64,000 nt of DNA, taken from Gemmatales bacterium (GTDB taxonomy: Bacteria; Planctomycetota; Planctomycetia; Gemmatales; Gemmataceae). The position numbers and the translations under genes are program-made. Where the stretch lies: NCBI GenBank assembly GCA_026004675.1, contig BPJP01000002.1, forward strand, positions 653,335 to 717,334, in the 5' to 3' direction. Below, in pieces: positions 3,343 to 43,341 of the stretch (positions within the stretch are counted from its first letter, which is position 1; every line of letters begins with the position of its first letter). The notes below the pieces were generated by a model that worked only from the letters and a program-made list of their open reading frames with translations, did no database searches and had not been told where the DNA came from.

Positions 3343-6300
3343 TCAGGCAACCGGCGAGGCAGGAGCTGGCCCTTGCCCTGCCGTTACCAGGTCGACAGCA
3401 TGTTGATCGGCCCTTTTTCTTTGCCATTTGGCAGCAAGCGACATTTTCCATTCCATCATCAGCGTGAACAGCGCGGGAACTAGAATAACGGTAACGAGGG
3501 TCGAAACGAGCAAGCCGCCCAAAACGACCGCGCCCAAACCGCGATAAAGTTCGCTGCCGGCGCCGGGGAACAGCACCAGTGGCAGCAGGCCGAAAACCGT
3601 CGTTGCAGTCGTCATGAAAATCGGCCGGATGCGGTTGCGGACGCTTTCCAGAACCGCTTCCCGCATAGGCATGCCTTCTTCCATGTGCACCAAGGTTTGT
3701 TTGACGATCAAAATCGGATTGTTGACGACGGTGCCGATGAGAATGACGAAGCCAAGCATGGTAAGAACGTCGAGCGATTGCAGGACGAAGATGTTCAAAA
3801 GCCAAAGCCCGATGAAGCCGCCGACAGCTCCCAGCGGCACGCTGACGATAATGACGAAAGGATACAGCCACGATTCAAAGAGGGCTGCCATCAACAGGTA
3901 AGTAATCAAGAGGGCCAGCAAGAAGTTCCAGCGCAAAGCATACCAGGTGGCCCGAAGTTTGTCAGCGGTGCCGGCGAGATTGATCTGATAAAGCCCTCCC
4001 TCGAGGTCTCCTCGTTCCATGATCGGCTTGGCGATATGCGTCTGGATCAAGTCCATGGCCTCTTCGAGCGGCACATTTTCGGGAGGAGAAACCTGGATGG
4101 TGATGGCTCGTTGTCGTTCCCGCCGGTTGACTTGTTCTGGACCGGCACCCATTTGAATATCTGCCAGCGCTTTCAACGGCACCAAAGAGCCGGTACGGGT
4201 CGCGATCGGCAGGGCTTCCAGGTCTTGCGTCCTCCTGGCGAACTGCTCCTGGCCAATGATGCGCAGATCGATTTTGTCGCCTTTTTCAAAGAAGTCGGCA
4301 GCATAAGCACCATCGACCAAAGCATCGACGGCATAGCCCAATTCCGAAGCGGCGATCTGCATTTCGGCACAATACTCCGGTTTGGGGATCAAATGCATCT
4401 CTGGACTGGACAAATCAAGACTCGGCCGGGGAATGGCTTGCGCGCCCGGCAGGATTTGCCCGACTTTGCCAATGACTTCGGTTCCCAAAGCCACCAGTTT
4501 TTTCAGGTCCGGGCCGGTGATTTCCACATCGACGGTCCGCCCTGCTCCCATGCCGCGTTCAAAGAGGCTGGACTGTTTGGCGAGGACAAAGGTACCGGGG
4601 ATTTTGCCGACGACTTGCCGCACAAGCGGGATAAGCTCACTCGCTCGCGCGGGGTCCGCACAACGAAGCCCCAAAAAGAGATTGCGGTCCCGAGCGACAA
4701 AGAAATAGTCGCCTATGGCTGGATAGTCGCCGACGCTAAGGGTCCCCTCATCCACATCCCAATAGGGACGCAGTTCCTCTTCGATCTGAGCGCCGATGGC
4801 CAGAGATTGATCGAGATTGTAGCCAGCAGGCGGTAACAGGATCCCCAAAACCAGGTTCCGGTTCCCCGAAGGCAAGTATTCCACCTTCGGCATCAGCAGC
4901 CAGATGAGGCCAAGCGACACCCCGACAAATCCGAGTACGGTGGCCAGCCGCAAAAACACACTGCGCTGGAGGCGGACATTGATCCGAATGATGACGTCGA
5001 CAAACGACTGGCCGATCCAGTTGAAGGGAGCGAGCAGGAACGTGCCAAAGACAGAGCGTTTTGTCGCTCTGATTCGGCCAGCACCTTCAAAGCCAAACGA
5101 TTGCTGCCCGCCGACCAACCTGGCTGCTGCCGTCGGAATGACCGTTATCGACACCAGCAGCGAAAGGGCAATGCCGCAACTGATGGCCAGAGCGATGTCA
5201 CGGAACAGCTGGCCGGCTTCTTCCTGGACGAACAGGACCGGAATGAAGACGGCGAGGGTGGTCAGGGTGGAAGCGAGAACCGCTCCCCACACTTCGTAAG
5301 TACCGACGACGGCCGCCTGCAACGGGGATTTGCCTAACTGGTAATGGCGATAAATGTTTTCCAGTACGACCACGGCGTTGTCGACCAGCATGCCGACGGC
5401 AAAGGCCAACCCAGCCAGGCTGATGACATTCAACGATCTGCCCATCAGGTACAGCATCAGGAATGTGCCGATAATCGAGGTGGGGATCGCCAAGCCAATG
5501 ACGAGCGTGGACCGGCCGCTGCGCAAAAACAGCAACAACACGATCACCGTCAACAGGCCGCCGACGAGGATATTGTTGGTGACCAGCCCGATAGCGGAGT
5601 AGATATATTCGGTTTCATCATAGACCTGCGATAACGTAAGGTTTTTCTGGGCAAGGATGCCTTCATTGAGTCTCTTGTTGGCGGCCCGCAACCCCTCCAT
5701 TACTTCGAGAACATTGGCGTTGTTTTTCCTCAGCACGCTGATAGCCAGCCGCTCGGTGCCGAATCGCCTTACTAAACCATCTGGCTTTTTGAAGCCCCGC
5801 ACTACTTGAGCGACGTCGCGGACATAGACAGGCTCGCCGTTTTCGTGCTTAATGACGGTATTGGCGACTTGTTCCGCCGTTTCGAATTGCCCCAGGGTGC
5901 GAACGACCCAGCGGCGTTTCCCTTCCCAAAAATCGCCGCCTGAGATATTCTTGTTTTCCACATCGAGGGCGCGACGCACGTCCTCAATCGTAATGCGCCG
6001 CGCCGCGAGTCGATGCGGGTTGACGATGACTTGCATTTCGACTTCGCGGCCACCGCGAACTTCAGCGTCGGCCACACCATCGACCCGTTCCAGTTCAGCT
6101 TCGATAACGTCTTCGGCGAACTTGCGCAATTTGGTTACGTCCATTTCCGGCGGCAGCAACTCGCGCAATGCAGGATATTTCTCCGCCGCTTCGCGCAAAC
6201 GCAAGCCCGCTACCCCGAAGTTCGGTGCCCTTCGAATCGGTTCCAGTACCTCCGTCAATTCCGGATGTTTCTCCGCGAAGGCGTCGATCTCCGCTAATGT

Positions 6301-6741
6301 CGGGGGACGTGGACTCAAAATGAACCAGGCAATCGCTCGATCCGACAAATTGGAAGATTCGATCACTGGCTTGTCTGCGTCAATGGGATACTCGCGGACC
6401 TGTTGCAAATGCGTGTTGACGCGCAACATCGCATCACGAAGATCGGTACCAATGGCGAATTCCAGCGTGATCCGACCGCGCGAATGCATCGCTTCCGAGG
6501 TCATCTTGACGACGCCTTCGACGCTCTTTAAATGCGTTTCCTGCTCGTAGATGATTTCCCGTTCGATCTCCTGCGGGCTGGCTCCGTTCCAAGTGGTTTC
6601 CACTGTGATGGTGGGAGTTTGCACTTCGGGTGTCAGTTGCATGGGCATGCCGAAAAGCGCGATGCTGCCAAACAAAGCGATCAGCAAGACACCCACGGAG
6701 ATCTTGACCGGGTTACGCACGCATAATTCGATGAGCCCCAT
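3343..6741 (-). CDS. RND efflux transporter permease (AcrB/CzcA family)
   Basis: 1132 aa protein with 12 TM segments arranged 1+5 / 1+5 around two large periplasmic loops. Conserved RND stretches (VVVLENIYRH, GLLPLVLFPGAGSE). Confidence 0.9.
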   Translation of the reverse strand: MGLIELCVRNPVKISVGVLLIALFGSIALFGMPMQLTPEVQTPTITVETTWNGASPQEIEREIIYEQETHLKSVEGVVKMTSEAMHSRGRITLEFAIGTDLRDAMLRVNTHLQQVREYPIDADKPVIESSNLSDRAIAWFILSPRPPTLAEIDAFAEKHPELTEVLEPIRRAPNFGVAGLRLREAAEKYPALRELLPPEMDVTKLRKFAEDVIEAELERVDGVADAEVRGGREVEMQVIVNPHRLAARRITIEDVRRALDVENKNISGGDFWEGKRRWVVRTLGQFETAEQVANTVIKHENGEPVYVRDVAQVVRGFKKPDGLVRRFGTERLAISVLRKNNANVLEVMEGLRAANKRLNEGILAQKNLTLSQVYDETEYIYSAIGLVTNNILVGGLLTVIVLLLFLRSGRSTLVIGLAIPTSIIGTFLMLYLMGRSLNVISLAGLAFAVGMLVDNAVVVLENIYRHYQLGKSPLQAAVVGTYEVWGAVLASTLTTLAVFIPVLFVQEEAGQLFRDIALAISCGIALSLLVSITVIPTAAARLVGGQQSFGFEGAGRIRATKRSVFGTFLLAPFNWIGQSFVDVIIRINVRLQRSVFLRLATVLGFVGVSLGLIWLLMPKVEYLPSGNRNLVLGILLPPAGYNLDQSLAIGAQIEEELRPYWDVDEGTLSVGDYPAIGDYFFVARDRNLFLGLRCADPARASELIPLVRQVVGKIPGTFVLAKQSSLFERGMGAGRTVDVEITGPDLKKLVALGTEVIGKVGQILPGAQAIPRPSLDLSSPEMHLIPKPEYCAEMQIAASELGYAVDALVDGAYAADFFEKGDKIDLRIIGQEQFARRTQDLEALPIATRTGSLVPLKALADIQMGAGPEQVNRRERQRAITIQVSPPENVPLEEAMDLIQTHIAKPIMERGDLEGGLYQINLAGTADKLRATWYALRWNFLLALLITYLLMAALFESWLYPFVIIVSVPLGAVGGFIGLWLLNIFVLQSLDVLTMLGFVILIGTVVNNPILIVKQTLVHMEEGMPMREAVLESVRNRIRPIFMTTATTVFGLLPLVLFPGAGSELYRGLGAVVLGGLLVSTLVTVILVPALFTLMMEWKMSLAAKWQRKRADQHAVDLVTAGQGPAPASPVA

Positions 6742-6897
6742 GGTGCAGCTTTCTCAATTGTCGAGTCAACGGTCCCAAATACAAAGCATGGCTGGATGTA
6801 TTTCCTCCACGCGCAGTGGAGCAATGGCTGGTCTCTGCTTCGGTCGGGGAGGGCTCGTCTGGTGGCGGATACCGTTGTCGGCGTGTTACCGCCCGGT

Positions 6898-8109
6898 TCA
6901 GTCTTGAAAAACGGCGTCCACCTTTTGGCCAGGACGAAGCCGTTCATTCCCTTGGACGACGACGACGTCGTTGTCGCTAAGTTCGCCTTTGACTTCGATC
7001 CAGTCTTCGTGGGCGAGACCCAGCTCGACGGGAACCCTGCGAGCGATGCCTTGCTTGACGACGAAGACAAGGTGGCGGCTGCCGCCAAGAACCAAAGCGT
7101 CTTTCGGAACGAAGTAGGCTTCTTTGTCCAGTTCACCAACAGGGAGGGTCACGCGGGCGAACATGCCGGCTTTCAATAGTACGTTCTTCTTGCCCAGTTT
7201 CTTGTTTTTCAAGCGTATTTTGACCGGAAAAGTGCGGGAGCGCAGGTCGCCTTTGGGAACGATCAGTTGGATGGTGCCTGTAAAGGTTCGATCAGGCAGT
7301 GCCCCCACATCGACGCGAACGGTTTGCCCTTCGCGCAGAAAGCCGACGTAATCCTCGAGCACGCCGACTTGAACATCGACTTCGGCCAGCTCCGCGATCT
7401 CCACGACGGGGTCACCGGGTTTGAGCCACTGGCCGACTTCGGTGAATTCGGCGGTGATGTAGCCGTCGAACGGCGCGCGAATCGTGTGCCTTTCGAGTTG
7501 TTCTTCGAGTCGATCCAAAAGCGCTTGTTGCGAAGCGACGCGCGCCTTGGCCTGTGCGATGCGTTGTTGTCTTGGTCCTTGCAGAATCTTGAGAGCGGCT
7601 TTCGCTTCTTCCAGATTGGCCTGGGCCTGTTCGGCGAGCGACGCCGATTCTTCGAGATCCTCTCTGCTGACGCCCCGGCCAACAAGCGTCTGGTTGCGTT
7701 GGCGTTTGGCTTTAGCGAAGCGCAAGGCCGCCTCGGCTAATGCCAGCCGAGCTTTGGCCTGTTCGATTTCCACAGGCAGCGAAGATACCAGTTCCTTCAA
7801 TTCCACTTGGCGCAAATCCAAATCCGCCCGTGCCGCCGCAACGTCTGCCTCGATAAGCTGTTGGCGTAATTTCGCGATGGGCTGGCCAGCACGCACATAA
7901 TCTCCTTCGTTGACAAGGAATTCGGCCACCCGACCATCAACGGCGCTGCCTACGGTGCTGACTCGAACCGGCATGATCGTGCCGACGAACGATTGGCTGG
8001 AAGCCGCCTTCATTTTTCGAACGCGCATCGTCACGACGCGGGCCGCTTCTTGCGCCGTGAGGACCGGCACGAACCATGCGACCAAGGCAACAGTCAGCAG
8101 CCGATTCAT
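6898..8109 (-). CDS. RND efflux periplasmic adaptor (membrane fusion protein, HlyD family)
   Basis: 403 aa protein with signal/anchor sequence, long coiled-coil hairpin (AEAALRFAKAKRQRNQ…), beta-barrel and lipoyl-like motifs. Lies immediately upstream of the RND pump on the same strand. Confidence 0.85.
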   Translation of the reverse strand: MNRLLTVALVAWFVPVLTAQEAARVVTMRVRKMKAASSQSFVGTIMPVRVSTVGSAVDGRVAEFLVNEGDYVRAGQPIAKLRQQLIEADVAAARADLDLRQVELKELVSSLPVEIEQAKARLALAEAALRFAKAKRQRNQTLVGRGVSREDLEESASLAEQAQANLEEAKAALKILQGPRQQRIAQAKARVASQQALLDRLEEQLERHTIRAPFDGYITAEFTEVGQWLKPGDPVVEIAELAEVDVQVGVLEDYVGFLREGQTVRVDVGALPDRTFTGTIQLIVPKGDLRSRTFPVKIRLKNKKLGKKNVLLKAGMFARVTLPVGELDKEAYFVPKDALVLGGSRHLVFVVKQGIARRVPVELGLAHEDWIEVKGELSDNDVVVVQGNERLRPGQKVDAVFQD

Positions 8110-8564
8110 GAAACGGTCTCCTCGACAATCGATTTGGTTTTCAGGTTTTCTTGAATTCTGGCGAGCACTCTTTTGACGACAGCCAGTTCGTCCTCATTCA
8201 AATCACGAACGGCACGGGCCCGGACTCGGCGGGCGCAACGCGTGATCTTCTTCCACACCGGCTGGACCTGAGGCGTCGGAGAAATCCGTTTCTTTCGCCG
8301 GTCCATTCTCGACGTTTGCCGCCTGATCCAGCCATTTCTCTCCATGCGGTCGAGAATTCCCACCAGTGTCGGCGCTTCGACTCGCATGCGATCGGCCAAC
8401 TCGGACTGCGTCAAGTCCCCTTCCAATGCCAGCCAACCCAACACCTGACATTGGCGGTACGTAATGCCGTGCTGCGCCAATTCGTCGTTCATGGCGCGTT
8501 CGAACATCCGTGCGGTCATCATGACCCAAAAGCCAATGCTTTCTTCGAAATCGTATTCCAGCAC
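8106..8564 (-). CDS. MarR-family transcriptional regulator
   Basis: 152 aa winged-helix protein (…QCQVLGWLALEGDLTQSELADRMRVEAPTLVGILDRMERNGWIRR…). Its stop overlaps the start of the adaptor gene, so the three genes form an operon. Confidence 0.85.
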   Translation of the reverse strand: MLEYDFEESIGFWVMMTARMFERAMNDELAQHGITYRQCQVLGWLALEGDLTQSELADRMRVEAPTLVGILDRMERNGWIRRQTSRMDRRKKRISPTPQVQPVWKKITRCARRVRARAVRDLNEDELAVVKRVLARIQENLKTKSIVEETVS

Positions 8565-8851
8565 AGCAGGCCCCCTAACGTTGGTTCGTTCGCTAACTAA
8601 CTATTTTGCTCCTCGCCTTCTCGTTCGGCAAGTGGCCAGCCGTTTTATCGTTGCCGAACAACAGCCAAGCGGGCAAACCGAACAGGTCGCCTCTGACGGG
8701 AAACGACGAATTACGAAGTGCAAGCAGAAAAGTTTCTTGAAAACGCCAGACTCAGACAGAATTGGTTAACCCCCTGTCCGCTCTTATGGTCTAATCGAGA
8801 TATCCTAGCAGGAAGTTGCTAGATTCCTATTTCTCCAACCTGGGTGGCCCC

Positions 8852-10780
8852 ATGTACAAAAAAATGCACTTCGTGGCCTGGGCATGTCTGCTGGCTGTCG
8901 CTATCGAGCAGCACGTATTTGCGGCGGAGCAGGGGAGAAGCCGCTACAACGAAATCCTACGAGGTACGGCATGGATCGTGGTACCGCTTAAGAACGGCAC
9001 GGCATCGGGGACCGGCTGGATCGTTGACCAGGAGCGTAAACTTCTGATCACGAATCATCACGTCGTTGCGGGCAAGCAACGGGTGTTGATCGTCTTTCCG
9101 CGCTTCAAAGACGGCCGAGTCATCTCCGAACGCAACGCCTACAAAGAAGAAGATGCTTTGCGGGCCAAAGTAATTGATACCGATCAGCACAGCGATCTGG
9201 CCGCAGTCCAATTGATCGACCGTTTGCCGGACGGCATTCGGGCCATTCCCATGGCCAGCGAGAGTGCCCAGCCGGGAGACGATCTCCATTCCGTAGGCAA
9301 TCCTGGTTCCAGTGGTGCGTTGTGGGTTTATACGTCAGGCACGGTTCGGCAAGTCTATTACAAAGAGTGGTATTCGCAAAACGGCCGAAGTTTTCTCGAG
9401 CGAAAGTGTCGCGTACTGGAATCACAATCGCCCATCAATCCCGGCGATAGCGGCGGGCCAGTGGTCAACGACGACGGCCAACTCGTGGGGGTGGTCTCGC
9501 ATTATCGGGCCACGGACTCATCCGGCAAGACGGTCCGGCTAATGTCTCATCACATCGATGTTTCCGAAGTGAAAAAATTCGTCGCCAGAACGCTCCGCAT
9601 GATGGAACCGAAAACAGCGGAGGATTTTACCCTTCGGGGCGAACGTCTGATCGAACAGGATAAACTAGGAGAGGCGATCGACGCTTTGACCCGCGCGATC
9701 AAGCTCAACGATAAATTAAGTGCCGCCTACCGGCATCGTGCCCGCGCCTTCGTTTACCGTGGCGACTACGACACGGCGGTGCTCGATTGCGACGAAGCCA
9801 TTCGACTGGATCCCAAAGATGCTGTCGCCTACGAGCATCGAGGACTAGCCCATCGGCGAAAAGGTGACATCGACAAAGCCATCGTTGATTACTCTAAAGC
9901 CATTCAAATCGATCCCAAGTATGCGCTGGCTTACAACAATCGGGGCTGGGCGCTGGAATTGAAAAAGCAGCGGGACCGCGCTTTGGCCGATTACGAACGC
10001 GCAATCCGCTTCAATCCGAAGTTTGTTGTCGCTCACATCAACCGCATGAATTTGCTGTACGACATGGGCCGTTACCGGGAAGCCTTAGCCGCTGCCGACG
10101 ATGGGTTGAAGGTCAATCCATTTCTGCCCGTCGCCTACCGTGTCAAAGGGCGTTCCTTGCACATGCTGAAACAGTACAAAGATGCGGTCTTGACCTTTGA
10201 TACCGCCATCCAGCTTTATCCTGACGAACCCTCGTACTTTGTCGATCGGGGTTTGGCCCTGACCTGGCTCAATCGCTGGGACCTGGCCGTCAAGGATTAC
10301 CGGAGCGCTATCAAAGTCGATCCCAAGTACGCGGCGGCATACTTCTGGGCTGGCAGTGCCATGGACTACCACCGAAATTTTGATGAAGCTCAACGCTACT
10401 ACAGCAAGGCGCTGGAACTCGATCCCCAGAATTACAAAGACAAAATCAAACGCTTCTACCAGCGGCATGTGAAAGTTGTCAACAACACGAACGAAACGCT
10501 ACGGATCGGCTACTTTTATGAAGCCGTCGACAAGCGGGAGTGGGGTTGGTATCCGACCAATCTCGGCAAAACCTATTTGTCGATCGATGTGCCGCCAGGA
10601 AAGTCGGCCTATCTCACCCATGAAGGCAAGAAGATCAGAGGTCGGAGAATTCGCATCTGGGCGGTCGGGTTGAAGTCCGGCGAACGCTGGCTTCGTGATA
10701 AGGACAAGGATGTGTGGATTTGTCCGACGGCCGGCTATCTGTCGAGGAACGAAACAGACTTTATCTATACCTTCAAGTAA
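8852..10780 (+). CDS. secreted trypsin-like (S1) serine protease fused to about nine TPR repeats and a C-terminal beta-rich domain of unknown function
   Basis: Signal peptide MYKKMHFVAWACLLAVA. Catalytic triad context TNHHVVAG (His), DLAAVQL (Asp), GDSGGPVV (Ser). Then tandem TPR-like repeats (AYRHRARAFVYRGDYDTAVLDCDEAIRLDP…, AYNNRGWALE…). The last 130 aa match no known family. Confidence 0.8.
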   Translation: MYKKMHFVAWACLLAVAIEQHVFAAEQGRSRYNEILRGTAWIVVPLKNGTASGTGWIVDQERKLLITNHHVVAGKQRVLIVFPRFKDGRVISERNAYKEEDALRAKVIDTDQHSDLAAVQLIDRLPDGIRAIPMASESAQPGDDLHSVGNPGSSGALWVYTSGTVRQVYYKEWYSQNGRSFLERKCRVLESQSPINPGDSGGPVVNDDGQLVGVVSHYRATDSSGKTVRLMSHHIDVSEVKKFVARTLRMMEPKTAEDFTLRGERLIEQDKLGEAIDALTRAIKLNDKLSAAYRHRARAFVYRGDYDTAVLDCDEAIRLDPKDAVAYEHRGLAHRRKGDIDKAIVDYSKAIQIDPKYALAYNNRGWALELKKQRDRALADYERAIRFNPKFVVAHINRMNLLYDMGRYREALAAADDGLKVNPFLPVAYRVKGRSLHMLKQYKDAVLTFDTAIQLYPDEPSYFVDRGLALTWLNRWDLAVKDYRSAIKVDPKYAAAYFWAGSAMDYHRNFDEAQRYYSKALELDPQNYKDKIKRFYQRHVKVVNNTNETLRIGYFYEAVDKREWGWYPTNLGKTYLSIDVPPGKSAYLTHEGKKIRGRRIRIWAVGLKSGERWLRDKDKDVWICPTAGYLSRNETDFIYTFK

Positions 10781-10876: not shown

Positions 10877-11716
10877 TCAGAGAATGCGCTTGGCCAATTC
10901 TGTCATCATTTCCGTGCACGAGGGCCAGCGATCCTGTGGCACGCGCGACAAGGCACGGGCAATGATGGGACGTTCGGCTTCGGGCAGCATCGTCAAGTCA
11001 GGTTCGGGCCGAACATAATTGCGGTCGAATTTGGAAGGGGTATCGGTAAATGGCAATCGCCCGCCGCGCAACTGGCAATAGGTGATTGCCAGCGAATACT
11101 GGTCGGATTTGTCGCTTAGCTGTCCCTGAAAGACTTCCGGAGCCGTGTAATCGAGGGTGCCGGCGCGACGATGGGCATGCAATCCTCCGCGGGTTCCGGT
11201 GGTCGAAGACAGGCCGTAGTCGGCCAGTTTCACCACATCGCCGAAGATCAGCAGGTTGTTTGGTTTGATATCGCAGTGCTGAATGGCTACAAGTTGGCCG
11301 TCGATATGATGCTGGCGTTTGTTGAGAAAGTCGAGCGCGTCGGCCGCCTGCGAAAGATACATGCAAACCTGTTCCGGCACGATCGGAGTGCCAAACTCTG
11401 CCTGGTACGCGTCAAGCAGGTCGAGCAGGCTCCCCTCGGCCAGTTCCATCGCGATGACGATGTAGTTTTCATAGACCCAAATGCGATCGATGCGCAGCAA
11501 ATGCGGATGCTGCAAAGTACGAATCGCTTGCATCGAGCGGATTTCCCTCGATGTGGCAAGGGAATCGTTGGCGAGAAGGAATTTGAGAGCGATTCGGCCT
11601 TCCGGTGATTCTGCTTCCCAGACTTCGGCATACCCTCCGCGACCGAGCAATTGGATCGTCTTGTAGCCGGGATACGGCTCCAGACCGGGTCGAATCGTAA
11701 AAACTCTCGCAGCCAT
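10877..11716 (-). CDS. Hanks-type Ser/Thr protein kinase, kinase domain only
   Basis: G-loop LGRGGYAEV, VAIK-like IALKF, catalytic loop HCDIKPNNL, DYG (DFG variant) and APE motifs all present. 279 aa, no extra domains. Confidence 0.85.
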   Translation of the reverse strand: MAARVFTIRPGLEPYPGYKTIQLLGRGGYAEVWEAESPEGRIALKFLLANDSLATSREIRSMQAIRTLQHPHLLRIDRIWVYENYIVIAMELAEGSLLDLLDAYQAEFGTPIVPEQVCMYLSQAADALDFLNKRQHHIDGQLVAIQHCDIKPNNLLIFGDVVKLADYGLSSTTGTRGGLHAHRRAGTLDYTAPEVFQGQLSDKSDQYSLAITYCQLRGGRLPFTDTPSKFDRNYVRPEPDLTMLPEAERPIIARALSRVPQDRWPSCTEMMTELAKRIL

Positions 11717-11840
11717 TTAGTCTGCTCGCCGTTGAGGGGCACGACGTGCTAGGGTACTCGGATGATGACGATCCCTAGCATACGACGATATTGGGAACGC
11801 CGTCAATAGCTTACTAACCTGCTTTTTTCATCCACTTCAC

Positions 11841-13544
11841 TCAGCGCACCATGCCTGCAGGCGAGGGAACGGTAAGCTGTTGGCGAATCGTCTCGGCGAA
11901 ATCGGGATCGCCGATCAAGCAGGGATGCTTGTATTGTTCCGGCGTGCCTCCGGAGCGCAGCAAGCGTTCGTGATCCCATTTGGCCCAGGTGCCCGGCTTG
12001 AGCCATTCGATGCGCACCGGCCCGAGGCGTTCGCTATGGCGCTTGCTTTCATACTCGATGTTGGCCCGGCACAGATAGCGGTCGAGCGCCTCCGCCAAAC
12101 GGCGGCCTTGTTCTGGAGCAAGGCCATCTTGCTCTTCGATAAACAACCCATAATAGGGCTGGTCATCATTCCAGCAAGGGGCCAGGCTGTAGGTCGTAAA
12201 CTCCAGATTCATTTCCTGCTGCGTGGCGCTCATCGCCCGTGTGACGTGGTATTCCGACAGTTTTTCGCCGGTGATGTTGGCAAAGAGCGACCCCTTGCTG
12301 AGGAACTCGACGAGAGGTGTTCGGTTGTAGAAGCCGGTGACTTGGACAACATCATAGATATTGTAACGATACAGTCCGAAGGCGGTCGTTGGCAGGATGA
12401 AATAGCGTTCTCCTTCTTTGACCTCGTGGGCTTCGAGAACGGTCGGTTGGGCTTGATTGATTTCGTTTTCGGGAACGAATTCGAAAAAGTGGCTGGTGAT
12501 ATCGAGAACGCCACTGGGGGAGAAATCGCTGAAGGGGATGGACATTCGGCCTTCGCTGGCGATCAAGCCGACATCTCGTACGGGGTTGTCGCCGAAGTAA
12601 CGGGGAAACTGGCGGAGGTAGTTGCCCACGCTGCCTCCGGTCCAGCAGCCCAACAGGCAATCGTTCCAGTAATGTCGGGGATAGAGATGGCCGTGCCGGT
12701 CGGCGAGCCGTTCCAATTGCCGGGCGCGGTCCGGGTGGCGTTTCAGTCGGCGCTGGATTTGTTCGCGGACACTGGGTGGCATGTCAAAGCGTTGGCTCAG
12801 GGTGCCGTCGTGGATGTCGCGAATCAGCGACTCCTTTTCGCTGTCGCCGGCGCGGGCGAGATTGACGAGCGTGCTGGGATTGGCCGCCACGATGACGCCA
12901 ACGTCTTTGGGCATTCCCAGCCGCAACACCGCATAATACTTGGCGGCTGGGTCTTTGATTTGGGCCACTGCAGGCGGTACGCAGTAGAGCCAACGGATGA
13001 TGCGTTTCTGCATCTTCGCTGTCAGTCCGGTTACGCTGCCGCAGGGAATTCCCGCCTCGGTGCGAAATTCATCGCAATCGCTCGACATTTGTACGATTGG
13101 CCTCAGCCGGACACTCTGATGGGCCCGGTAAGCACGCAGACCCCAGATGTTCCAGGCGCGTCGATAGTCGGCCAGGTATTGTGAGGTAACGGGAATGAAC
13201 TTGCGTGCCGAAGTCGTACCGCTGGTCAAGGCGAACATCTTTACCGGGTCAGCCAAAAGAGCGGAGGTATTCCCAGCGCGAACGCGAGCGATGTAAGGCT
13301 CGAAGTACTCATAACCGGCAATTGGCAGGTGCCGACGGAAATCCTCGACCGATCCGATCGCTCGAAAATGATGTTGGCGTCCGAAATCGGTATCCGCATG
13401 GTGGGCGAGGATGCGTCTGAGCAGCGCCTGCTGAATTTCTCGCGGGCGATGTGTGGCGGCTTCAAAAGCGTTGATGTGACGGAGTACCGGCCGCCGGACA
13501 ACCCGGCCAATGAGAAAGAGAAACCAGCGTGGGAGAATCATCAC
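11841..13544 (-). CDS. GH3 family (auxin-responsive promoter / acyl-acid amido synthetase-like) adenylating enzyme
   Basis: 567 aa. N-terminal region typical of GH3 (…FALTSGTTSARKFIPVT…YEYFEPYIARV…). Adenylate-forming superfamily architecture. Confidence 0.75.
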   Translation of the reverse strand: MMILPRWFLFLIGRVVRRPVLRHINAFEAATHRPREIQQALLRRILAHHADTDFGRQHHFRAIGSVEDFRRHLPIAGYEYFEPYIARVRAGNTSALLADPVKMFALTSGTTSARKFIPVTSQYLADYRRAWNIWGLRAYRAHQSVRLRPIVQMSSDCDEFRTEAGIPCGSVTGLTAKMQKRIIRWLYCVPPAVAQIKDPAAKYYAVLRLGMPKDVGVIVAANPSTLVNLARAGDSEKESLIRDIHDGTLSQRFDMPPSVREQIQRRLKRHPDRARQLERLADRHGHLYPRHYWNDCLLGCWTGGSVGNYLRQFPRYFGDNPVRDVGLIASEGRMSIPFSDFSPSGVLDITSHFFEFVPENEINQAQPTVLEAHEVKEGERYFILPTTAFGLYRYNIYDVVQVTGFYNRTPLVEFLSKGSLFANITGEKLSEYHVTRAMSATQQEMNLEFTTYSLAPCWNDDQPYYGLFIEEQDGLAPEQGRRLAEALDRYLCRANIEYESKRHSERLGPVRIEWLKPGTWAKWDHERLLRSGGTPEQYKHPCLIGDPDFAETIRQQLTVPSPAGMVR

Positions 13545-13553
13545 GGCCTCCGA

Positions 13554-14663
13554 CTAGGAAGACGAGGAACCTCGGCTCACGGCCAGCGTCTGTTGGGGCG
13601 AACCGTTGGCTGAGCCGGCTGTCTGAGCATAGCCGTTGAGTGCTGCTGGGTTGCTGGCAAGATGCTCGCGAAAGAACTCGATGACGCGACGGTGGTATTC
13701 GTCACCGGCGACATGAACCGAAGTATTGTGCTTGGCCCCTTCAACAAGCCAGAATTCTTTCGGCGGTTTCGCCGCTTCAAAAAGCGCTTGTCCGATCTGG
13801 GGAGCGATGTAGTTGTCGGCCGCCCCGTGAATCATCAACAGCGGCCTGGGTGACAAGCTTCCCATGACGGGTTTCAGGTCGACGTAGTGCCAGTCCTTGC
13901 CCCGGTTTCGGTAGTCGCGTTCGAGGCAGCGGCGACCGGCTTGCTCGTAAAACCAGGACGGCAAGATGCGTTGCAGCCAGCGTCGTTGGCTGTAAATGGC
14001 GATCCATTTTCGCATGAAGGGAACGACTACGGTAAAGGTATCGAAAACGCCATCGGTCACGAAGCAGCGAACGTACGGGTTCGATGCCGACGCCAAAAGG
14101 CCGGCCGCGGCTCCTTTGCTGACACCGAAGAAACCGATCCCCGTCGGCTCCGCGTCGGGGCGGGTTCTCAAGTATTCGATTGCCGACTCCGCATCGATCA
14201 CGTCGTATTTGGTCACCCAGTGCAAAGGCTCATAGCCAGGCATCGATTCGCTGTCACCCTGGTTGCGGAACTCGAAAGCGAAAACGTCGAAGCCAGCATC
14301 CACGAGTTTTTCACAGAAAGGGACGCATGTCCAGCGAGAGGCGCCGTAGGGTACGCCGAAGAGAATCACGCCGAGTCTTCGGGATGCGGGCGTGCGCAGG
14401 TAACAGCCACATAGCTGGTAGCCATCGCTGCTATGGAAGTAGACGTTTTCGGCGCTTTCGAGTGGTTGGCCGCGTGGAATAATGAAAATCGGCTTTTCTT
14501 CAAAGCCGCGAACCAGGTGCTTGCCATAGCGACTGATAAGATAATCCTGAAAGAGACGATTCCCAGTCCAGACTGCGCCGCTGAGGCAGACGATTCCCAC
14601 TATAGCGTACCACAACCATTCCAAGGTGCAACTCCCAAGACGGATTAAGGTCGGTCCAATCAC
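13554..14663 (-). CDS. alpha/beta hydrolase (thioesterase/peptidase-like) with N-terminal TM anchor
   Basis: GxSxG nucleophile elbow GVSKGA. Downstream Asp and His candidates (…IHGAADNY…, …GAKHNTSVH). N-terminal hydrophobic helix. Confidence 0.7.
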   Translation of the reverse strand: MIGPTLIRLGSCTLEWLWYAIVGIVCLSGAVWTGNRLFQDYLISRYGKHLVRGFEEKPIFIIPRGQPLESAENVYFHSSDGYQLCGCYLRTPASRRLGVILFGVPYGASRWTCVPFCEKLVDAGFDVFAFEFRNQGDSESMPGYEPLHWVTKYDVIDAESAIEYLRTRPDAEPTGIGFFGVSKGAAAGLLASASNPYVRCFVTDGVFDTFTVVVPFMRKWIAIYSQRRWLQRILPSWFYEQAGRRCLERDYRNRGKDWHYVDLKPVMGSLSPRPLLMIHGAADNYIAPQIGQALFEAAKPPKEFWLVEGAKHNTSVHVAGDEYHRRVIEFFREHLASNPAALNGYAQTAGSANGSPQQTLAVSRGSSSS

Positions 14664-15952
14664 ACATCGAATTTGCGGACAACGAGCGAAATGTTCTGCC
14701 CGCCAAAACCGAAGCTATTGCTCAAGGCGCAACGCACCGTTTTTTCCCGAGCGGCGTTCGGAATGTAATCCAAATCGCATTCGGGATCGGGCGTTTCGTA
14801 ATTCATCGTTGGCGGCATGACGCCTTTCTGGATGGTCATGACGCAGGTAATCAATTCTACAGCCCCGGCGGCAGCGATCAAATGTCCGAGCATGCTCTTG
14901 CTGCTGCTGACAGGAACCTGATACGCTGCATCGCCGAAAACCTGTTTAATCGCTATCGTCTCTACTTTGTCATTCACCTGCGTGCTCGTTCCGTGGGCGT
15001 TGATGTAATCGACGTCGGTCGGCTGGATACCGGCGTCCTGGAGAGCGGCGCGGATGCAAGCCGCCGCCCCGCGCCCTTCGGGATGGCTGTCCGTAATGCG
15101 GAAGGCGTCCGCCGTCGAACCGTAGCCGATTATCTCCGCATAGATATGAGCTCCGCGCTTCTTGGCATGCTCCAATTCTTCCAGGACGAGCATTCCAGAA
15201 CCTTCGCCAAGCACGAAACCATCGCGATGCAAGTCGAAAGGACGCGATGCCTTCGAAGGCGGATCATTGCTGGTGGACAAAGCCGTCAACAAATTGAACC
15301 CGGTCACCCCGAGTGGATGGATCATGCTGTGCGAGCCGCCGCTGAGCATAATGTCCGCATCGCCATGGCGAATCATCTCCGTCGCTTCACCGATCGCCTG
15401 GCTGCTGGCGGCACAGGCCGTCAGGCAATTGAAATTCGGTCCCTCGAGGTCAAAATAAGCCGCCAAGTGGGCGGCCGAGGTGTGCAGCTCTTGTTCGGCT
15501 TCACGGCCTGGATGAAAGTAGCGCAATGCACCGCTGGTAAACCCAGCCGTGTCGACGAGCCGACTATCGGCATCGTAGTTGAAAGCAATCAGAGAGACGA
15601 GATTATGAAAGTCCTGAATCCCTTCGCCGCAACCAAGATAGACACCGATCCGAGTGCGATCCACTTTCGTATTGTCGAGCAAATCGGCATCTTCAAGTGC
15701 TTGTTTCGCTGCGGCGGCGGCAAACTGGCTGTTGACTCCGGAATCGACCCACCGTTGAGGCTCTTTGACGAAACGCGACAGATCGAAGTTTTTGACTTCG
15801 GCGGCAATCTGTGTCGGAAAGCGTTGGGCATTGAAAAGGGAGATGCGACCGATTCCACTGCGCCCTTCGATCTGAGCGGCGTAGAGTTCCTCGACGCTGT
15901 GTCCGAGCGGTGTGATCGCTCCCATTCCGGTAATTACGACTCGCCTTCGCAT
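14660..15952 (-). CDS. beta-ketoacyl-ACP synthase (KAS I/II, FabF-like)
   Basis: Active-site Cys motif TACAASSQAIG, His motifs (INAHGTSTQ), C-terminal SNSFGFGGQNISLVV. Probable start at MRRRVVITGMG, which is Met 22 of the ORF in the track. Confidence 0.85.
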   Translation of the reverse strand: MRRRVVITGMGAITPLGHSVEELYAAQIEGRSGIGRISLFNAQRFPTQIAAEVKNFDLSRFVKEPQRWVDSGVNSQFAAAAAKQALEDADLLDNTKVDRTRIGVYLGCGEGIQDFHNLVSLIAFNYDADSRLVDTAGFTSGALRYFHPGREAEQELHTSAAHLAAYFDLEGPNFNCLTACAASSQAIGEATEMIRHGDADIMLSGGSHSMIHPLGVTGFNLLTALSTSNDPPSKASRPFDLHRDGFVLGEGSGMLVLEELEHAKKRGAHIYAEIIGYGSTADAFRITDSHPEGRGAAACIRAALQDAGIQPTDVDYINAHGTSTQVNDKVETIAIKQVFGDAAYQVPVSSSKSMLGHLIAAAGAVELITCVMTIQKGVMPPTMNYETPDPECDLDYIPNAAREKTVRCALSNSFGFGGQNISLVVRKFDV

Positions 15953-15983
15953 ATCCCTGCTCCTTCGCCGCACTCGCGAAGGA

Positions 15984-17264
15984 TTACTCCCAGCGGCGGA
16001 CAACAATCGCGGCACACTGTCCCATATCAGTGAAGTTGAGCTTCAAAACATACGGTTTCGTCGCGGGCACTGGGTCCCCAGCGATCACCGCGAGCGGGCA
16101 ATTCGCATCCCGGTTTTCAAAGTTTTTCGTAGCCGGTACCAGACCATGATGCAGCGCTAACACGCTGGCGGCTAATTCCGTTGTGCCCGCCGCCGCGCCC
16201 AAATTGCCCAACAAGCTCTTGGCAGCAAATACTTTTACCGGCGGGTCCCTATCGCCGAAGACTTCATTGATGCCCTTCGCTTCCCAGGCGTCGACATCGA
16301 CGGCGCTTAAACCGTGAGCATTGATGTGATCGACATCTTCCGGTTCGATGCCGGCGTCCCTCAAGGCATTGCGAATGGCTCGTGCAATCCCCGCACCCGA
16401 TCGCTGGCGGTCGAAAGCCGATCCGAAACCGACCACTTCCGCGTAAATGCGGGCCCCTCTCTTTTGGGCGTGTTCCAGGGTCTCCATGACGAGGACGGTG
16501 GCACCTTCGGAGATGACCATGCCATCGCGATCGCGGTCGAAGGGACGACTAGCCAGTTCGGGTTCGTCGTTTCGTCGCGACAAAGGCTGAAACAGGCACT
16601 GTCTGGAAAAACTCAACGGATTCAATCGACTTTCCCCGCCGCCAACCAGGAAGAAATCAGCCTGGCCTCGGACAAGTATGCGGTAGGCTTCGCCGATTGC
16701 TAGCGTACTGCCGACATCGCTTTCGGTAATCGTGTTGCTTGGTCCCTGGGCGTTATGGAGGATCGACACATGGCAGGCGAGCATGTTGGGAAGGTATTTC
16801 AACATCCACAACGGCGTGATATTGGGCAAACCTTCCGCTCCCCATTTTTCCAGGTCGATGGAACCGGGCTGGCAATTGGCGCTCACCCGCGCCGCTTCTC
16901 CCAGCTCTTCCAGTTCGCTGGCGATCAAGCCGGCGCCGAACTCAACGCCGAAGCGCGTCGGATCGAGCTGGGTTTTGTCCACGTTCCCATCGTTGAGTGC
17001 CAGTTGGGCGGCGGCGACCGATAGCTGGATGCTCCGCGCCATAACGCGCAGGCTTTTGCGTTCCTTCTTGTCGATGTAGTTTTTGGCGTCAAAACCGTGC
17101 ACTTCGCCCGCAATGCGCACTGGCAGGCTTTTCGCGTCAAAGGCGGTTATCGGACCGACTCCGCTGCGGCAATGCACTAGCGCGTCCCAGAAGGCGTTGG
17201 CGTCCAGCCCGAGGGGCGTGAGAGCGCCAATTCCAGTTAGAACAACTCGTCGTGAATCCGCCAT
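15984..17264 (-). CDS. ketosynthase paralog lacking the catalytic cysteine (chain-length-factor-like partner)
   Basis: Full KAS fold (…VVLTGIGALTPLG…HINAHGLS…). At the position equivalent to GPNFNCLTACAASS in the neighbouring KS it reads GPSNTITESDVGST, so Cys is replaced by Asp. Probable start at MADSRRVVLTG. Confidence 0.75.
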   Translation of the reverse strand: MADSRRVVLTGIGALTPLGLDANAFWDALVHCRSGVGPITAFDAKSLPVRIAGEVHGFDAKNYIDKKERKSLRVMARSIQLSVAAAQLALNDGNVDKTQLDPTRFGVEFGAGLIASELEELGEAARVSANCQPGSIDLEKWGAEGLPNITPLWMLKYLPNMLACHVSILHNAQGPSNTITESDVGSTLAIGEAYRILVRGQADFFLVGGGESRLNPLSFSRQCLFQPLSRRNDEPELASRPFDRDRDGMVISEGATVLVMETLEHAQKRGARIYAEVVGFGSAFDRQRSGAGIARAIRNALRDAGIEPEDVDHINAHGLSAVDVDAWEAKGINEVFGDRDPPVKVFAAKSLLGNLGAAAGTTELAASVLALHHGLVPATKNFENRDANCPLAVIAGDPVPATKPYVLKLNFTDMGQCAAIVVRRWE

Positions 17265-17373
17265 GGCCCACCTGTGCAAAAACAGCGAACGGCACTGCGT
17301 CTATCCGAAGGCAGACACGTGTTGCCGTGCCATTCTCACGGCCTGGTACAATGCCTATTATAGTGGCAACTCC

Positions 17374-17880
17374 TTAACCGTCCGGTTGTTTGGCCGCCGC
17401 CTGCGCCAAACCCAGCAAGTGCTTGAGCTCCCCAGAGAAAACAAAGTTGTGGTCGCCAAAGATCCTTTGCGATCGCGAGCGATCCAGATGAGCGAAAAAA
17501 ATCTCCGCCTCGGCGATGAGGTCCGTATCGCTGTAAACCCGGCCGGCGACAGACGCTCCTTCCGGCCGAAGATGCAGCAGATCGACCTCGTAGCGCAACT
17601 GTTCGCCAGCGGTCGCTTCGCGCCGGAATCGAGCGAACGTGATTTTAGCCAACACGACTTTTTCCTGAAAGTTGTTGGCTTCACCGACCAGGATGCCGCC
17701 CGTCTGGGCTAACCCTTCCAGGATCAACGACGCGGGCATGACTGGATAGCCGGGAAAATGTTCGGCGAAGTAATCCTCAGCGAGACTGAGGTTCTTTATT
17801 GCCGTCGCCCGCTTGCCACTTTCAAATTCCAAAAAACGGTCTATCCAGATCCATCGCATAGGGCCTCTGTAGTCTGGCAC
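17374..17880 (-). CDS. 3-hydroxyacyl-ACP dehydratase (FabA/FabZ hot-dog fold)
   Basis: Hot-dog motif …AEHFPGYPVMPASLILEGLAQTGGIL… 168 aa. Confidence 0.8.
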   Translation of the reverse strand: MPDYRGPMRWIWIDRFLEFESGKRATAIKNLSLAEDYFAEHFPGYPVMPASLILEGLAQTGGILVGEANNFQEKVVLAKITFARFRREATAGEQLRYEVDLLHLRPEGASVAGRVYSDTDLIAEAEIFFAHLDRSRSQRIFGDHNFVFSGELKHLLGLAQAAAKQPDG

Positions 17881-18010
17881 CGATCGTTGCGCACGAAAGA
17901 GCCGCCAACATAGTGAAAAAAGAGAAGGAGTTGCCCGGTTGTGCCGTGGAACTCCTTCTCCCGTATTGTCACCTTCCGATTACACGTAAAGAGCAATTGT
18001 TGGCGAATTC

Positions 18011-18412
18011 CTAATTCTTGCTCGGTTCGCTCAGCTTGCCTTCGATGTAACGGGTGATCATTTCGACGGTAAACAGATTGCTGATATTGCTGACCTCCGG
18101 ATTTTCTTCAAATTTGGACAAGTCAGCGAAAGGCATGCGCTGCCTGAGTTCGGCGATCCCCTTTTCCGTGACTTTTCCATCCTGAACGAATTCGGGGTCG
18201 CCTTGAAAGATCGACTCGGGGAACAGTTCGTTACGGGGAATCTTGATGCCGAATTCCCTTTCCAACCGAAAAACGATGTCGAGAAAATCGATCGATTCCG
18301 CCCCGAGGTCGCCCTGGAGAGTCGACGTAGGTTTGATTTCATCTTCGTCCACATTCAGGGCTTCTACCAACGTCGCGGAGACCTTTGAGTAGATTTCATC
18401 ACGGCTCGACAT
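18011..18412 (-). CDS. acyl carrier protein with a long internal insertion/extension
   Basis: Phosphopantetheine-attachment motif DLGAESIDFLDIVFRLE (Ser in a DSL-like context). 133 aa against about 78 aa for canonical AcpP. Confidence 0.75.
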   Translation of the reverse strand: MSSRDEIYSKVSATLVEALNVDEDEIKPTSTLQGDLGAESIDFLDIVFRLEREFGIKIPRNELFPESIFQGDPEFVQDGKVTEKGIAELRQRMPFADLSKFEENPEVSNISNLFTVEMITRYIEGKLSEPSKN

Positions 18413-18541
18413 TGATCGCTTCCTCCAGAAATAAAGAGCTTAGGAACGAACACGTTCCCTGGTCCGTTGAATATCGCAGCCGATTCATGCCCAGCGCTTG
18501 GAGCGTTCATGAGTCAGCCACGGTCGTTTCCCGCCACAATG

Positions 18542-19301
18542 TTATCCGGCGACCGCACCCAGGCTAAGCCCGCCATCCACCGTGATGACCTGCCCTGTGA
18601 TATAACCACTTTCCTCACTGGCAAGAAACACGGCGACGCGGGCGATGTCTTCTGGTTTTCCGAGCCGGCGCATGGGGATCATCTTTTTGATGATGTCCCC
18701 AGCTTTGTTTCGCACGGCTTCACTCATATCGGTCTCGATGAAGCCCGGGGCGATGGCATTCACGGTGACGTTTCGGCTGGCGAGTTCCACTGCCAAAGCA
18801 CGCGTCAAGGCGTTGATCGCGCCTTTGCTGGCCGCGTAATTGGTTTGCCCCGGGTTCACGTGTTCCGCCGCTACACTAGAAATATTGATGATTCGGCCAC
18901 GCCGCTGTTTCATCAGCGGATAGGCTACCGCTCGACAAAAGTTATAGGTACCCTCCGAGGTTGGTTTGCAACACCTTGGACCACGCCTCAGGCTCGAGGC
19001 GGATGAACAAGTCGTCATGTATGATCCCGGCATTGTTCACCAGAATGTCCAGCCGTTGCCATTCGTTCTGCACGCGTTCAACACAGTTTTGGGCGAAGTC
19101 GGCGTCGCAAACATCACCTTGCAAGGCCAGAATCGTGCCGCCATTCGACTGGACTTCCTGAACGAGTGCGTCCGCTGCTTCTTTGCTGCCTCGATAGACA
19201 AAGGCGACCCTGGCGCCTTCTCGGGCGAAGCGTTCGACGATCGCCCGTCCAATTCCACGGCTGCCACCCGTCACCAAAGCGACCTGGTCCTTCAACAACA
19301 T
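18542..19301 (-). pseudogene. 3-oxoacyl-ACP reductase (FabG-like SDR) split by an apparent frameshift (pseudogene or sequencing error)
   Basis: N-terminal half in ORF 18942..19301 (TGGSRGIGRAI…NNAGI). C-terminal half in ORF 18542..19033 (…RIINISSVAAEHVNPGQTNYAASKGAI…, YxxxK, PGFIETDM). The two frames overlap at about 18940-18960, consistent with a 1-nt indel. Confidence 0.65.
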
Positions 19302-19305
19302 ATCC

Positions 19306-19800
19306 CTACGACCCTATGCCCACGGGATTCGCTGACGTCAAAAACGCATACACGTCGCGCAGATGGTCGATGAGGCGCTGATCGACCGAAGCGCATTCAG
19401 GGCGAGTATCTTTCAAGTTATATTGAAACAACACCAGGCGAGCAGAAACGGTGGTTTGTCCGCCGACTTCGCCCTTCCCTTTCAGCGTCGCCAGGCCGCT
19501 TTCTTCTTGAGCGAGCAGGTCGACAGTGATGTGCATCTGCCGACCGGGTTCCATGAATGTGCCGTATTTAACGTTCTTCGCCTCGCGCAATACGACGAGG
19601 CTATGGCGAAAATCGTTGGTGACCCGCAGCAGCCAGCTTCCCGCCTCCACGAGTGTCTGCAACATGAGCACGCCCGGCATCACTGGAAAGGTCGGGAAAT
19701 GATCCGCCAAATACTCTTCCCCAAGTGTCAAATTCTTGACCGCCTGAACAGACTTTCCCGCCGTCATGGCGGTAATCCGATCCAGGAGGTTGAATCGCAT
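19306..19800 (-). CDS. second FabA/FabZ-like hot-dog dehydratase
   Basis: …ADHFPTFPVMPGVLMLQTLVEAGSWL… 164 aa. Confidence 0.8.
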   Translation of the reverse strand: MRFNLLDRITAMTAGKSVQAVKNLTLGEEYLADHFPTFPVMPGVLMLQTLVEAGSWLLRVTNDFRHSLVVLREAKNVKYGTFMEPGRQMHITVDLLAQEESGLATLKGKGEVGGQTTVSARLVLFQYNLKDTRPECASVDQRLIDHLRDVYAFLTSANPVGIGS

Positions 19801-20204
19801 AAGAAGAATCCTTGTTTAGGTGCCGCCAGAACTCCAACGTAAGACTACCAAGCCTCGCAAAAGCGGCAAGTATATAAGAAGCCTTCTAAACCGGCAACCT
19901 CGAACGGCTGTCACCCGCGCCACTTGTCTCTGTTGCCCAGTTTTGCAGCAGCCAAAAGAGTGCCATAGTTTTGCCGATTTGGCAATGTAGGAAAGCAAAT
20001 TTGGCCGTGTAAACTGCGGAAGACCAGACTAGCGCTGGCAATTGAAGCGAATTTGACGGCTCTTCAGCCTTTGCGTGACTGCTTTACGTGCGTGCGTCAA
20101 ATCCAGCTTGGTTCTTGAAAACCCACACAATCCCATATCATTAACATTGTGCCGATCGTAACGGTTCTTAACAGGAAAGCGGCATCCTCGCCAGAGGGAG
20201 AATC

Positions 20205-36510: not shown

Positions 36511-36549
36511 ATATTGACAAGGCTGATCGACTAGCGAACGAAAGCAACG

Positions 36550-37245: not shown

Positions 37246-37354
37246 AAAAGCAAATTGTCAGGAAACCTGGTTGACCGATCCCATGGCTCGAAGCAGCGAA
37301 GTCTTCGGGCAATGAGATGACAGCGATGAACCCTAACAAATCGGGAGGTCTTTT

Positions 37355-37666: not shown

Positions 37667-37710
37667 CTTCTTTGTCAGTTCCACAATGAAACAAGTTGCG
37701 AGGATTTGTC

Positions 37711-39191: not shown

Positions 39192-39221
39192 AAGGGCAGG
39201 ATTCGTGAAAGCGAGAAAGCC

Positions 39222-39533: not shown

Positions 39534-39542
39534 GGGAACATC

Positions 39543-41066: not shown

Positions 41067-41123
41067 TCAAATGCGCAAATAAATGACTCAAATTGGTTTC
41101 TAATTTCTGGTTTTGCTTTCGCC

Positions 41124-43276: not shown

Positions 43277-43341
43277 TGCCGATCGAAAGGTAGTGATGGG
43301 CTTCGGTCTGCGTACATGTTTGCAAAAACGAGGAATCGATT

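Follow-up and report, generated by a model that had tools for sequence, protein, structure and literature searches.

We describe an eight-gene operon of a Gemmatales bacterium in which a GH3-family acyl-acid amido synthetase stands at the end of a private fatty acid synthase (FAS) module. The operon lies on the minus strand at positions 11841–19800 of the window, by which we mean the whole 64,000-nucleotide stretch of contig BPJP01000002.1 that was analysed. Its genes run in the order DH2-KR-ACP-DH1-KS partner-KS-alpha/beta hydrolase-GH3, with GH3 as the last gene (DH, dehydratase; KR, 3-oxoacyl-ACP reductase; ACP, acyl carrier protein; KS, ketosynthase). On balance we favour the view, held with modest confidence, that this operon builds its own acyl chain and turns it into an amide-linked acyl-amino-acid lipid, which would be a lipoamino acid or an aminolipid. 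The cassette joins two known kinds of system, a GH3/alpha-beta-hydrolase aminolipid route and a FabF-derived module of a KS and a dead KS with its own ACP, and its distinctive features are an acidic residue at the active site of the dead KS and an invariant insertion in the ACP. We found no description of this gene combination in the literature.

An earlier note on this DNA had described nine co-directional minus-strand genes with short or overlapping gaps, had read them as a discrete-subunit, iterative synthase related to fatty acid and polyketide synthases (PKS), and had likened them to aryl-polyene (APE) clusters. A check of the open reading frames (ORFs) of the window finds all nine at 10877–19800, with intergenic spacing of −4 to 130 bp; the stop of the KS gene overlaps the start of the hydrolase gene by 4 bp, and 9 bp separate the hydrolase from GH3. 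Compared with Pfam and NCBIfam models, the window proteins confirm every domain that had been called, with the qualification that the KR is not a single ORF, being broken by a 1-bp frameshift. The discrete-subunit character of the system also stands, for a predicted active KS, a Cys-less partner, a KR, two hot-dog DHs and a dedicated ACP are all present. As the note had said, enoyl reductase (ER), acyltransferase and ammonia-lyase are absent, both from the window cluster and from 160 related loci. FabD and FabH are likewise missing from the cluster, and neither is conserved in those loci.

Conservation is the evidence that defines the unit. Relatives of the GH3 were sought with peptides specific to its family in a genome collection that represents each species once, which gave at least 599 matching stretches, 591 of them confirmed. 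Barring a few evidently mislabelled metagenome-assembled genomes (MAGs), the best 80 loci all carry Gemmatales, Gemmataceae or Planctomycetota labels, and they include the cultured Zavarzinella formosa. Flanks of up to 10 kb were read and compared with the window proteins by tblastn; the denominators that follow are the loci with enough upstream sequence. The hydrolase lies upstream of GH3 on the same strand in 71 of 73 loci. Further upstream, in the same strand and order, follow the KS (57 of 61, which upholds the pairing of KS and GH3 on which the earlier proposal had been made to depend), the partner KS (51/56), DH1 (50/54), ACP (49/53), KR (48/52) and DH2 (47/51). The same eight genes are thus kept in order and strand in about 50 independent genomes, at protein identities of 55–90%, and this conservation is far beyond chance. 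Clustering all flanking ORFs against one another revealed no other conserved neighbour, whether ER, acyltransferase, exporter or methyltransferase, so the unit comprises the eight genes at 11841–19800. The exceptions are one locus with GH3 alone and three loci, among them Zavarzinella formosa, with the hydrolase and GH3 but no FAS genes within about 9–10 kb upstream; in Z. formosa the pair has TsaD and a Kelch protein as neighbours. These loci, together with the linkage of hydrolase to GH3 in nearly every genome, show that within the unit no linkage is tighter than that of the hydrolase-GH3 pair.

The GH3 gene (11841..13544, minus strand) is an ORF of 567 aa; it matches with 100% identity a protein called as 566 aa in the public annotation, where the locus-tag prefix is KatS3mg105. 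Its protein matches the GH3 N, M and C domains with 255, 82 and 81 bits (Pfam cut-off 23.6 for each), and its best match in the Protein Data Bank (PDB) is the plant enzyme JAR1 (4epl), which it matches end to end over residues 20–544 with 128 bits. We assigned the nucleotide-binding motifs by our own alignment to the published SSGTSxGxxK-, YGSSE- and YRxGD-like motifs: TSGTTSARK at 107–115, ASEG at 329–332 and GLYRYNIYD at 390–398. Within these, T107-S-G-T-T, A329-S-E-G and G390..Y-R-Y..D398 are invariant (n = 24). The protein is not an OlsH equivalog, reaching 105 bits in two stretches against model NF052613, whose cut-off is 620. A phmmer search of 1.84 billion cluster representatives returned at least 1,676 at E ≤ 1e-30, the best 150 of them 29–69% identical. 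Taken with the low OlsH score, these matches suggest that the window GH3 falls within a large clade of bacterial GH3 proteins separate from OlsH. Among the ten nearest non-orthologous GH3 representatives, one cluster holds a protein from a 'Planctomycetaceae bacterium' MAG.

The earlier note had proposed that GH3 could conjugate the product to an amine or amino acid, or else load a starter, and published precedents support the conjugating role. OlsH, a GH3-type enzyme, makes N-acyl ornithine from free fatty acid and ATP and does not need an ACP or CoA donor, and OlsI, an alpha/beta hydrolase of the OlsH operon, adds the second acyl chain; the authors of that work consider other amino acids to be the probable substrates of many GH3 homologues in bacteria (PMC12493201, Rivera-Najera et al. 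2025). In the legionellol cluster of Legionella pneumophila (lpg2225-2234), the GH3 lol1 is proposed to attach an ornithine-derived amine to an acid of polyketide type (PMC5640695, Johnston et al. 2016). That cluster, whose product is a surfactant lipid, resembles ours in setting a GH3 among discrete FAS/PKS-type enzymes (ACP, KR and ketosynthases). It differs in its FabH-type (KS III) synthases and acyl-CoA ligases and in lacking a KS/partner pair, hot-dog DHs and an alpha/beta hydrolase, and the GH3 role there is itself a proposal. A third line of support comes from amino-acid-tailoring genes in a sister clade, described below. Planctomycete stieleriacines, by comparison, use NasY, and the paper on them does not mention GH3.

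The hydrolase (13554..14663, minus strand) carries its Pfam alpha/beta hydrolase domain, an invariant Ser-Asp-His triad and a long N-terminal helix. Its adjacency to GH3 raises the question of whether the operon is a Gemmatales version of the OlsH/OlsI ornithine-lipid synthase equipped with its own supply of 3-hydroxy fatty acid. The two systems come from the same phylum; GH3 and an alpha/beta hydrolase share one operon here as OlsH and OlsI do in all planctomycetes examined (PMC12493201); the expected product class, an N-acyl amino-acid lipid, is the same; and OlsH homologues have been reported in Gemmatales (PMC12971839). Like OlsH/OlsI, the pair can also stand alone, in Z. formosa and at other loci. 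We nevertheless judge this reading unlikely. The GH3 falls far below the OlsH cut-off, and at least 1,676 representatives match it at E ≤ 1e-30 as against E 3.4e-30 for the OlsH profile, two values that come from different types of search. Its motifs are more plant-like, the third, GLYRYNIYD, resembling plant GLYRYRLGD and not OlsH GMWSHLIGD. The cassette has no OlsG-like methyltransferase, and it places a six-gene private FAS module upstream of the pair, whereas OlsH uses free fatty acids.

The KS gene (14660..16015, minus strand; the true start is probably at 15952) encodes both ketoacyl-synt domains, N and C, and reaches the fabF equivalog with 501 bits against a cut-off of 493.75. All 50 sequences compared keep its Cys-His-His triad and Lys, and it is predicted to be an active FabF-type ketosynthase. 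The gene for the partner, a chain-length factor (CLF)-like FabF paralogue, lies immediately upstream (15984..17279, minus strand). The partner also has both ketoacyl-synt domains and scores 353 bits with the fabF model, under the same cut-off. The earlier note's Cys-less paralogue is confirmed: in the window protein Asp occupies the catalytic Cys position and Asn replaces the second His. Among Gemmatales sequences the Cys position holds Asp in 31 and Glu in 8, and in the sister clade it is Glu in 10 of 10; the first His and the Lys are kept, and the second His is mostly Asn.

An active KS adjacent to a partner without the catalytic Cys is the KS/CLF-like layout of type II PKS, yet the nearest relatives of the two proteins are not KS-alpha and KS-beta, since FabF is the best PDB match for both. 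For the KS the ranking is Bacillus subtilis FabF 378 bits, actinorhodin KS 284, AntD-type KS 275 and Iga11 238; for the partner it is FabF 1j3n 285 bits, Iga11 159 and actinorhodin CLF 150. No APE ketosynthase was recognisable among the best 60 PDB matches of each KS, a comparison that included no Ape sequences. A type II PKS CLF is expected to have Gln at the Cys position, where the cassette partner has Asp or Glu. By this ranking, the pair would be a duplication of FabF rather than a PKS or APE-type pair. A heteromeric FabF-like pair in the PDB, chains B and C of 9s5h, also matches the window KS (340 bits) and the partner (172 bits), the latter being nearer to ordinary FabF than to chain C. 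This entry may be the anammox heterodimer discussed next.

A comparable arrangement within the Planctomycetota is found in anammox bacteria, where amxFabF2 pairs with amxFabFmut, which lacks the triad, in a heterodimer of the KS/CLF kind, with amxACP and amxFabZ in the same cluster (bioRxiv 10.64898/2026.05.19.726425). This Cluster I shares with the Gemmatales cassette a dedicated ACP, a FabZ and a dead FabF just upstream of an active FabF, and it contains neither KR nor ER. Its dead subunit has Val or Thr at the Cys position instead of Asp or Glu, and it includes radical-SAM and phytoene-desaturase-like genes but no GH3 and no hydrolase.

Both dehydratases are FabZ/FabA-like hot-dog proteins that fall under the NCBIfam FabZ cut-off of 113. 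DH1 (17374..17880, minus strand) scores 68 bits with Pfam FabA and 99.8 with FabZ, and its catalytic His and Glu are canonical and invariant (n = 27). DH2, a paralogue encoded by the first gene of the operon (19306..19800, minus strand), scores 62.5 and 80.9 bits, respectively. Its catalytic His is invariant, and the Glu position is Gln in the window protein; across Gemmatales, 24 of 37 sequences have Gln there and 12 have Glu, which is also the residue in the sister clade.

The ACP (18011..18412, minus strand; 133 aa) has a PP-binding domain (44 bits) and falls under the cut-off of every NCBIfam ACP model that it matches, the best being 59.5 against 71. No other cassette protein is as well conserved: homologues are 83–90% identical over their full length, with a mean column identity of 91%, while the surrounding enzymes are at about 45–75%. 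The high conservation extends to an insertion of about 50 aa that separates helix II from the final helix. An AF2 model (pLDDT 84) predicts a four-helix core with inserted elements between about residues 60 and 112, and no solved ACP in the PDB covers the insertion (TMq ≤ 0.56). By equivalog cut-offs, then, the KS and the repaired KR pass at the level of housekeeping FAS enzymes and DH1, DH2 and the ACP fail.

The KR (18542..19301, minus strand) is split into two overlapping ORFs, 18942–19301 and 18542–19033, that carry the N-terminal and C-terminal parts of adh_short. The break is a 1-bp insertion in a GGG run at 18951–18953. When one G is removed, a 252-aa KR results that is 82% identical, gap-free, to the intact orthologue of locus L004; the junction sequence, VLQTNLGGTYNFCRAVAY, is identical in the two. 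The repaired protein just reaches the FabG equivalog TIGR01830, with 299 bits against 297.75, and 47 of 48 related loci have the KR in an unbroken reading frame. A gene for a DeoR-type regulator elsewhere in the window (35718–36510, plus strand) is likewise present as two overlapping ORFs, covering positions 2–109 and 101–160 of the 160 of Pfam DeoRC, and its break falls at a G5 run (36236–36240). Because this second split gene also breaks at a G run, a homopolymer error in the assembly is the simplest, though unproven, reading of the KR split; it may instead be a real and very recent frameshift. Pseudogenisation of the KR as a biological feature we reject on the same ground. At eight Gemmatales loci (L023, L032, L033, L035, L036, L039, L045 and L048) a second FabG-like short-chain dehydrogenase/reductase, 36–42% identical to the cassette KR, lies about 1–2 kb upstream of DH2; at L036 a coproporphyrinogen oxidase gene is found beside it.

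To look beyond the close relatives, metagenomes were scanned with a six-sequence GH3 subgroup, 40–52% identical to the window GH3, a 36-sequence alignment of distant GH3s being too diverse for scanning. Among the 26 loci with enough upstream sequence, eight have the cassette, six the hydrolase and GH3 only, and twelve GH3 alone. The hydrolase is present in all eight of these cassettes; the KR is missing from seven and present in one. A cassette without a KR needs the housekeeping FabG, which implies a module built to cooperate with housekeeping FAS, and in such a module a missing ER is not evidence for a polyene. The earlier step from 'no ER' to a polyene product therefore loses its support.

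The sister clade (loci L081–L092) adds a hint about the second substrate of GH3. Its GH3s score 93–102 bits with the OlsH equivalog. In this clade a class-I aminotransferase gene precedes DH2 in 4 of 4 loci, and a methyltransferase gene follows GH3 in 10 loci; at locus L089, for example, these flanking genes are at 3506–4621 and 11649–12752. The best match of the methyltransferase is 2-ketoarginine methyltransferase TIGR04543, at 111 bits, under the cut-off. An aminotransferase with a 2-oxo-acid C-methyltransferase constitutes the route to beta-methyl amino acids such as 3-methylarginine, beta-methylphenylalanine and 3-methylglutamate. The presence of such a pair beside the cassette gives indirect support to an amino acid as the second substrate of GH3, and it suggests that the sister-clade product is an N-acyl beta-methyl amino acid.

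From gene content, catalytic residues, co-conservation and the FabF/FabG-grade similarity of KS and KR, all of them observed directly, we infer the following route to an acyl-amino-acid lipid. Housekeeping FabD would load malonate onto the 133-aa ACP. The KS and its Asp/Glu partner would then elongate the chain as a heterodimer, as their catalytic residues and the anammox and PKS precedents suggest, and the FabG-type KR and the two FabZ-type DHs would process each beta-keto group. Enoyl reduction, if any, would be borrowed from the housekeeping FabI, so that the degree of unsaturation of the chain is left free. The hydrolase, presumably anchored by its N-terminus, could either free the chain from the ACP as an acid or O-acylate the first product in the manner of OlsI. 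By analogy with the chemistry of OlsH and plant GH3 enzymes, the GH3 would adenylate the free acid with ATP and link it in an amide to an amino acid through the latter's amino group.

A bolder version of this proposal, which we put forward only tentatively, is that the operon makes an undescribed class of lipid. The chain would be of unusual length or unsaturation, built on the insertion-bearing ACP by the KS/KS(Asp/Glu) heterodimer and joined in an amide to an amino acid by a non-OlsH GH3, and the product would be a widespread component of the Gemmatales envelope or membrane. The acidic residue of the dead KS and the ACP insertion would then be mechanistically new, and may serve, for example, in priming or partner selection.

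Several points weigh against an acyl-amino-acid lipid as the product. The proposal is drawn from genes and sequence comparison. With 105 bits where the OlsH cut-off is 620, the GH3 is remote from OlsH and as close to plant JAR1 (128 bits), which does not allow OlsH substrates to be transferred to it. For the hydrolase, the likeness to OlsI is one of shared fold; no NCBIfam model names it, and its best match, the AHL lactonase family, reaches 46.6 bits against a cut-off of 400. In principle, the acid that the GH3 activates could be a starter and not the completed chain. Finally, if the KR frameshift is real, the operon may be defective in this MAG.

Of the other readings, the one nearest to the earlier note is that the operon makes an aryl-polyene-like or other polyene pigment or lipid, in which the KS pair, the KR and the DHs, with no ER at work, would build a conjugated polyunsaturated acyl-ACP, the hydrolase would set the chain free, and GH3 would serve either to conjugate it or to load an aromatic starter. 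A KS with a Cys-less partner, a KR, two hot-dog DHs, a discrete ACP and no ER are indeed a polyene-forming type II composition, shared with APE and ishigamide-type highly reducing type II PKS; an ER gene is conserved at 0 of the 160 loci; and the ACP insertion could, speculatively, shield intermediates from the housekeeping FabI. APE clusters are expected to bring accessory genes as well: an ANL-type aryl-acid ligase, a hot-dog thioesterase, LolA/MMPL export and acyl- or glycosyl-transferases. The cassette has no conserved neighbour beyond its eight genes, and hence no ANL ligase, hot-dog thioesterase, MMPL/LolA export, methyltransferase or ammonia-lyase, and its adenylating enzyme is a GH3, not an ANL enzyme. 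The KS and KR attain equivalog scores for FabF and FabG, and in the PDB ranking both KS proteins are nearer to FabF (378 and 285 bits) than to Iga11 (238 and 159), the actinorhodin KS/CLF or the AntD-type KS, which leaves the likeness to APE clusters seen earlier without support from the KS pair. Moreover, the seven of eight sister cassettes that lack a KR must accept the housekeeping FabG, which makes exclusion of FabI unlikely. The rhizobial very-long-chain fatty-acid cluster acpXL-fabZXL-fabF2XL-fabF1XL (PMC11901934) is a precedent for such borrowing. It encodes a special ACP, then a FabZ and then two FabF paralogues, the same ACP-FabZ-FabF-FabF core as the cassette, and with no KR or ER it relies on housekeeping enzymes to deliver one special acyl chain to one acceptor; the difference is that the acyltransferase LpxXL attaches this chain to lipid A, whereas in the cassette a GH3 would join it to an amino acid. 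A polyene product therefore seems improbable to us.

We see hardly any room for the remaining alternative, that housekeeping fatty-acid genes merely lie beside an unrelated hydrolase-GH3 pair: the KS (501 vs 493.75) and the repaired KR (299 vs 297.75) do just reach their cut-offs, and the 64-kb window holds no further fab genes outside the cassette, but the ACP with its 50-aa insertion is under all ACP cut-offs, both DHs are under that of FabZ, one KS is catalytically dead by sequence, no genome has FabD, FabH or FabI in its cassette, which is therefore not a self-sufficient FAS, the KS and hydrolase genes overlap, the hydrolase and GH3 occur without FAS genes at three loci (including Z. formosa) and GH3 alone at one, and the link of the FAS genes to hydrolase and GH3 holds in Gemmatales and in sister clades.

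Around the operon, two further elements had been mentioned in the earlier note. A Ser/Thr kinase (Pkinase in Pfam; 10877..11716, minus strand) had been regarded as embedded in the cluster. It is a stand-alone kinase domain of 279 aa, 124 bp downstream of GH3, with a promoter-like site at 11806–11777. No kinase occupies this position in any of 63 related loci (0/63), and we reject it as a cluster member; it is a local neighbour outside the cassette. A MarR-HlyD-AcrB operon of the resistance-nodulation-division (RND) type at 3343–8564, beyond a plus-strand gene for a trypsin-TPR protein (8816–10780), had been pointed out as an exporter 3 kb away. It is never found near the cassette in related loci, and we reject it as the exporter of the cluster. 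On the other side, the nuoIJKLM operon diverges from the cassette on the plus strand from 20205. In the intergenic region between DH2 and nuoI, hexamer pairs at 19869..20013 (minus strand) give two sigma-70-like matches of 9/12 each, which as matches to a consensus are weak evidence for a promoter. An Rfam search of the window gave no match, and terminator-like sites were not above chance.

Farther away, the DeoR regulator described above opens a bacterial microcompartment locus (35718–44370, plus strand) that is unrelated to the cassette. Its other genes encode a phosphate propanoyltransferase (PTAC), a BMC-H shell protein, an acetate kinase, two EutN/CcmL vertex proteins, an aldehyde dehydrogenase, an RpiB-like protein, a class II aldolase and an Ldh/Mdh-type dehydrogenase, a set that we take to resemble the planctomycete microcompartment of the fucose/rhamnose type.

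It was not until 2025 that GH3 enzymes were shown to produce membrane aminolipids in bacteria, and there are thousands of other bacterial GH3 homologues. In the Gemmatales, a GH3 is hard-wired to its own acyl-chain factory in a widely conserved cassette, with 591 confirmed sites in species-level genomes and many more in metagenomes. Its pair of a FabF-derived KS and a dead KS is the third independent one in FAS-like systems, after those of the anammox and APE/PKS systems. The sister clade with its amino-acid-tailoring genes offers a natural comparison for headgroup specificity. The cassette thus predicts a specific undiscovered lipid of the Gemmatales, and it makes the question of the GH3 substrate directly testable.

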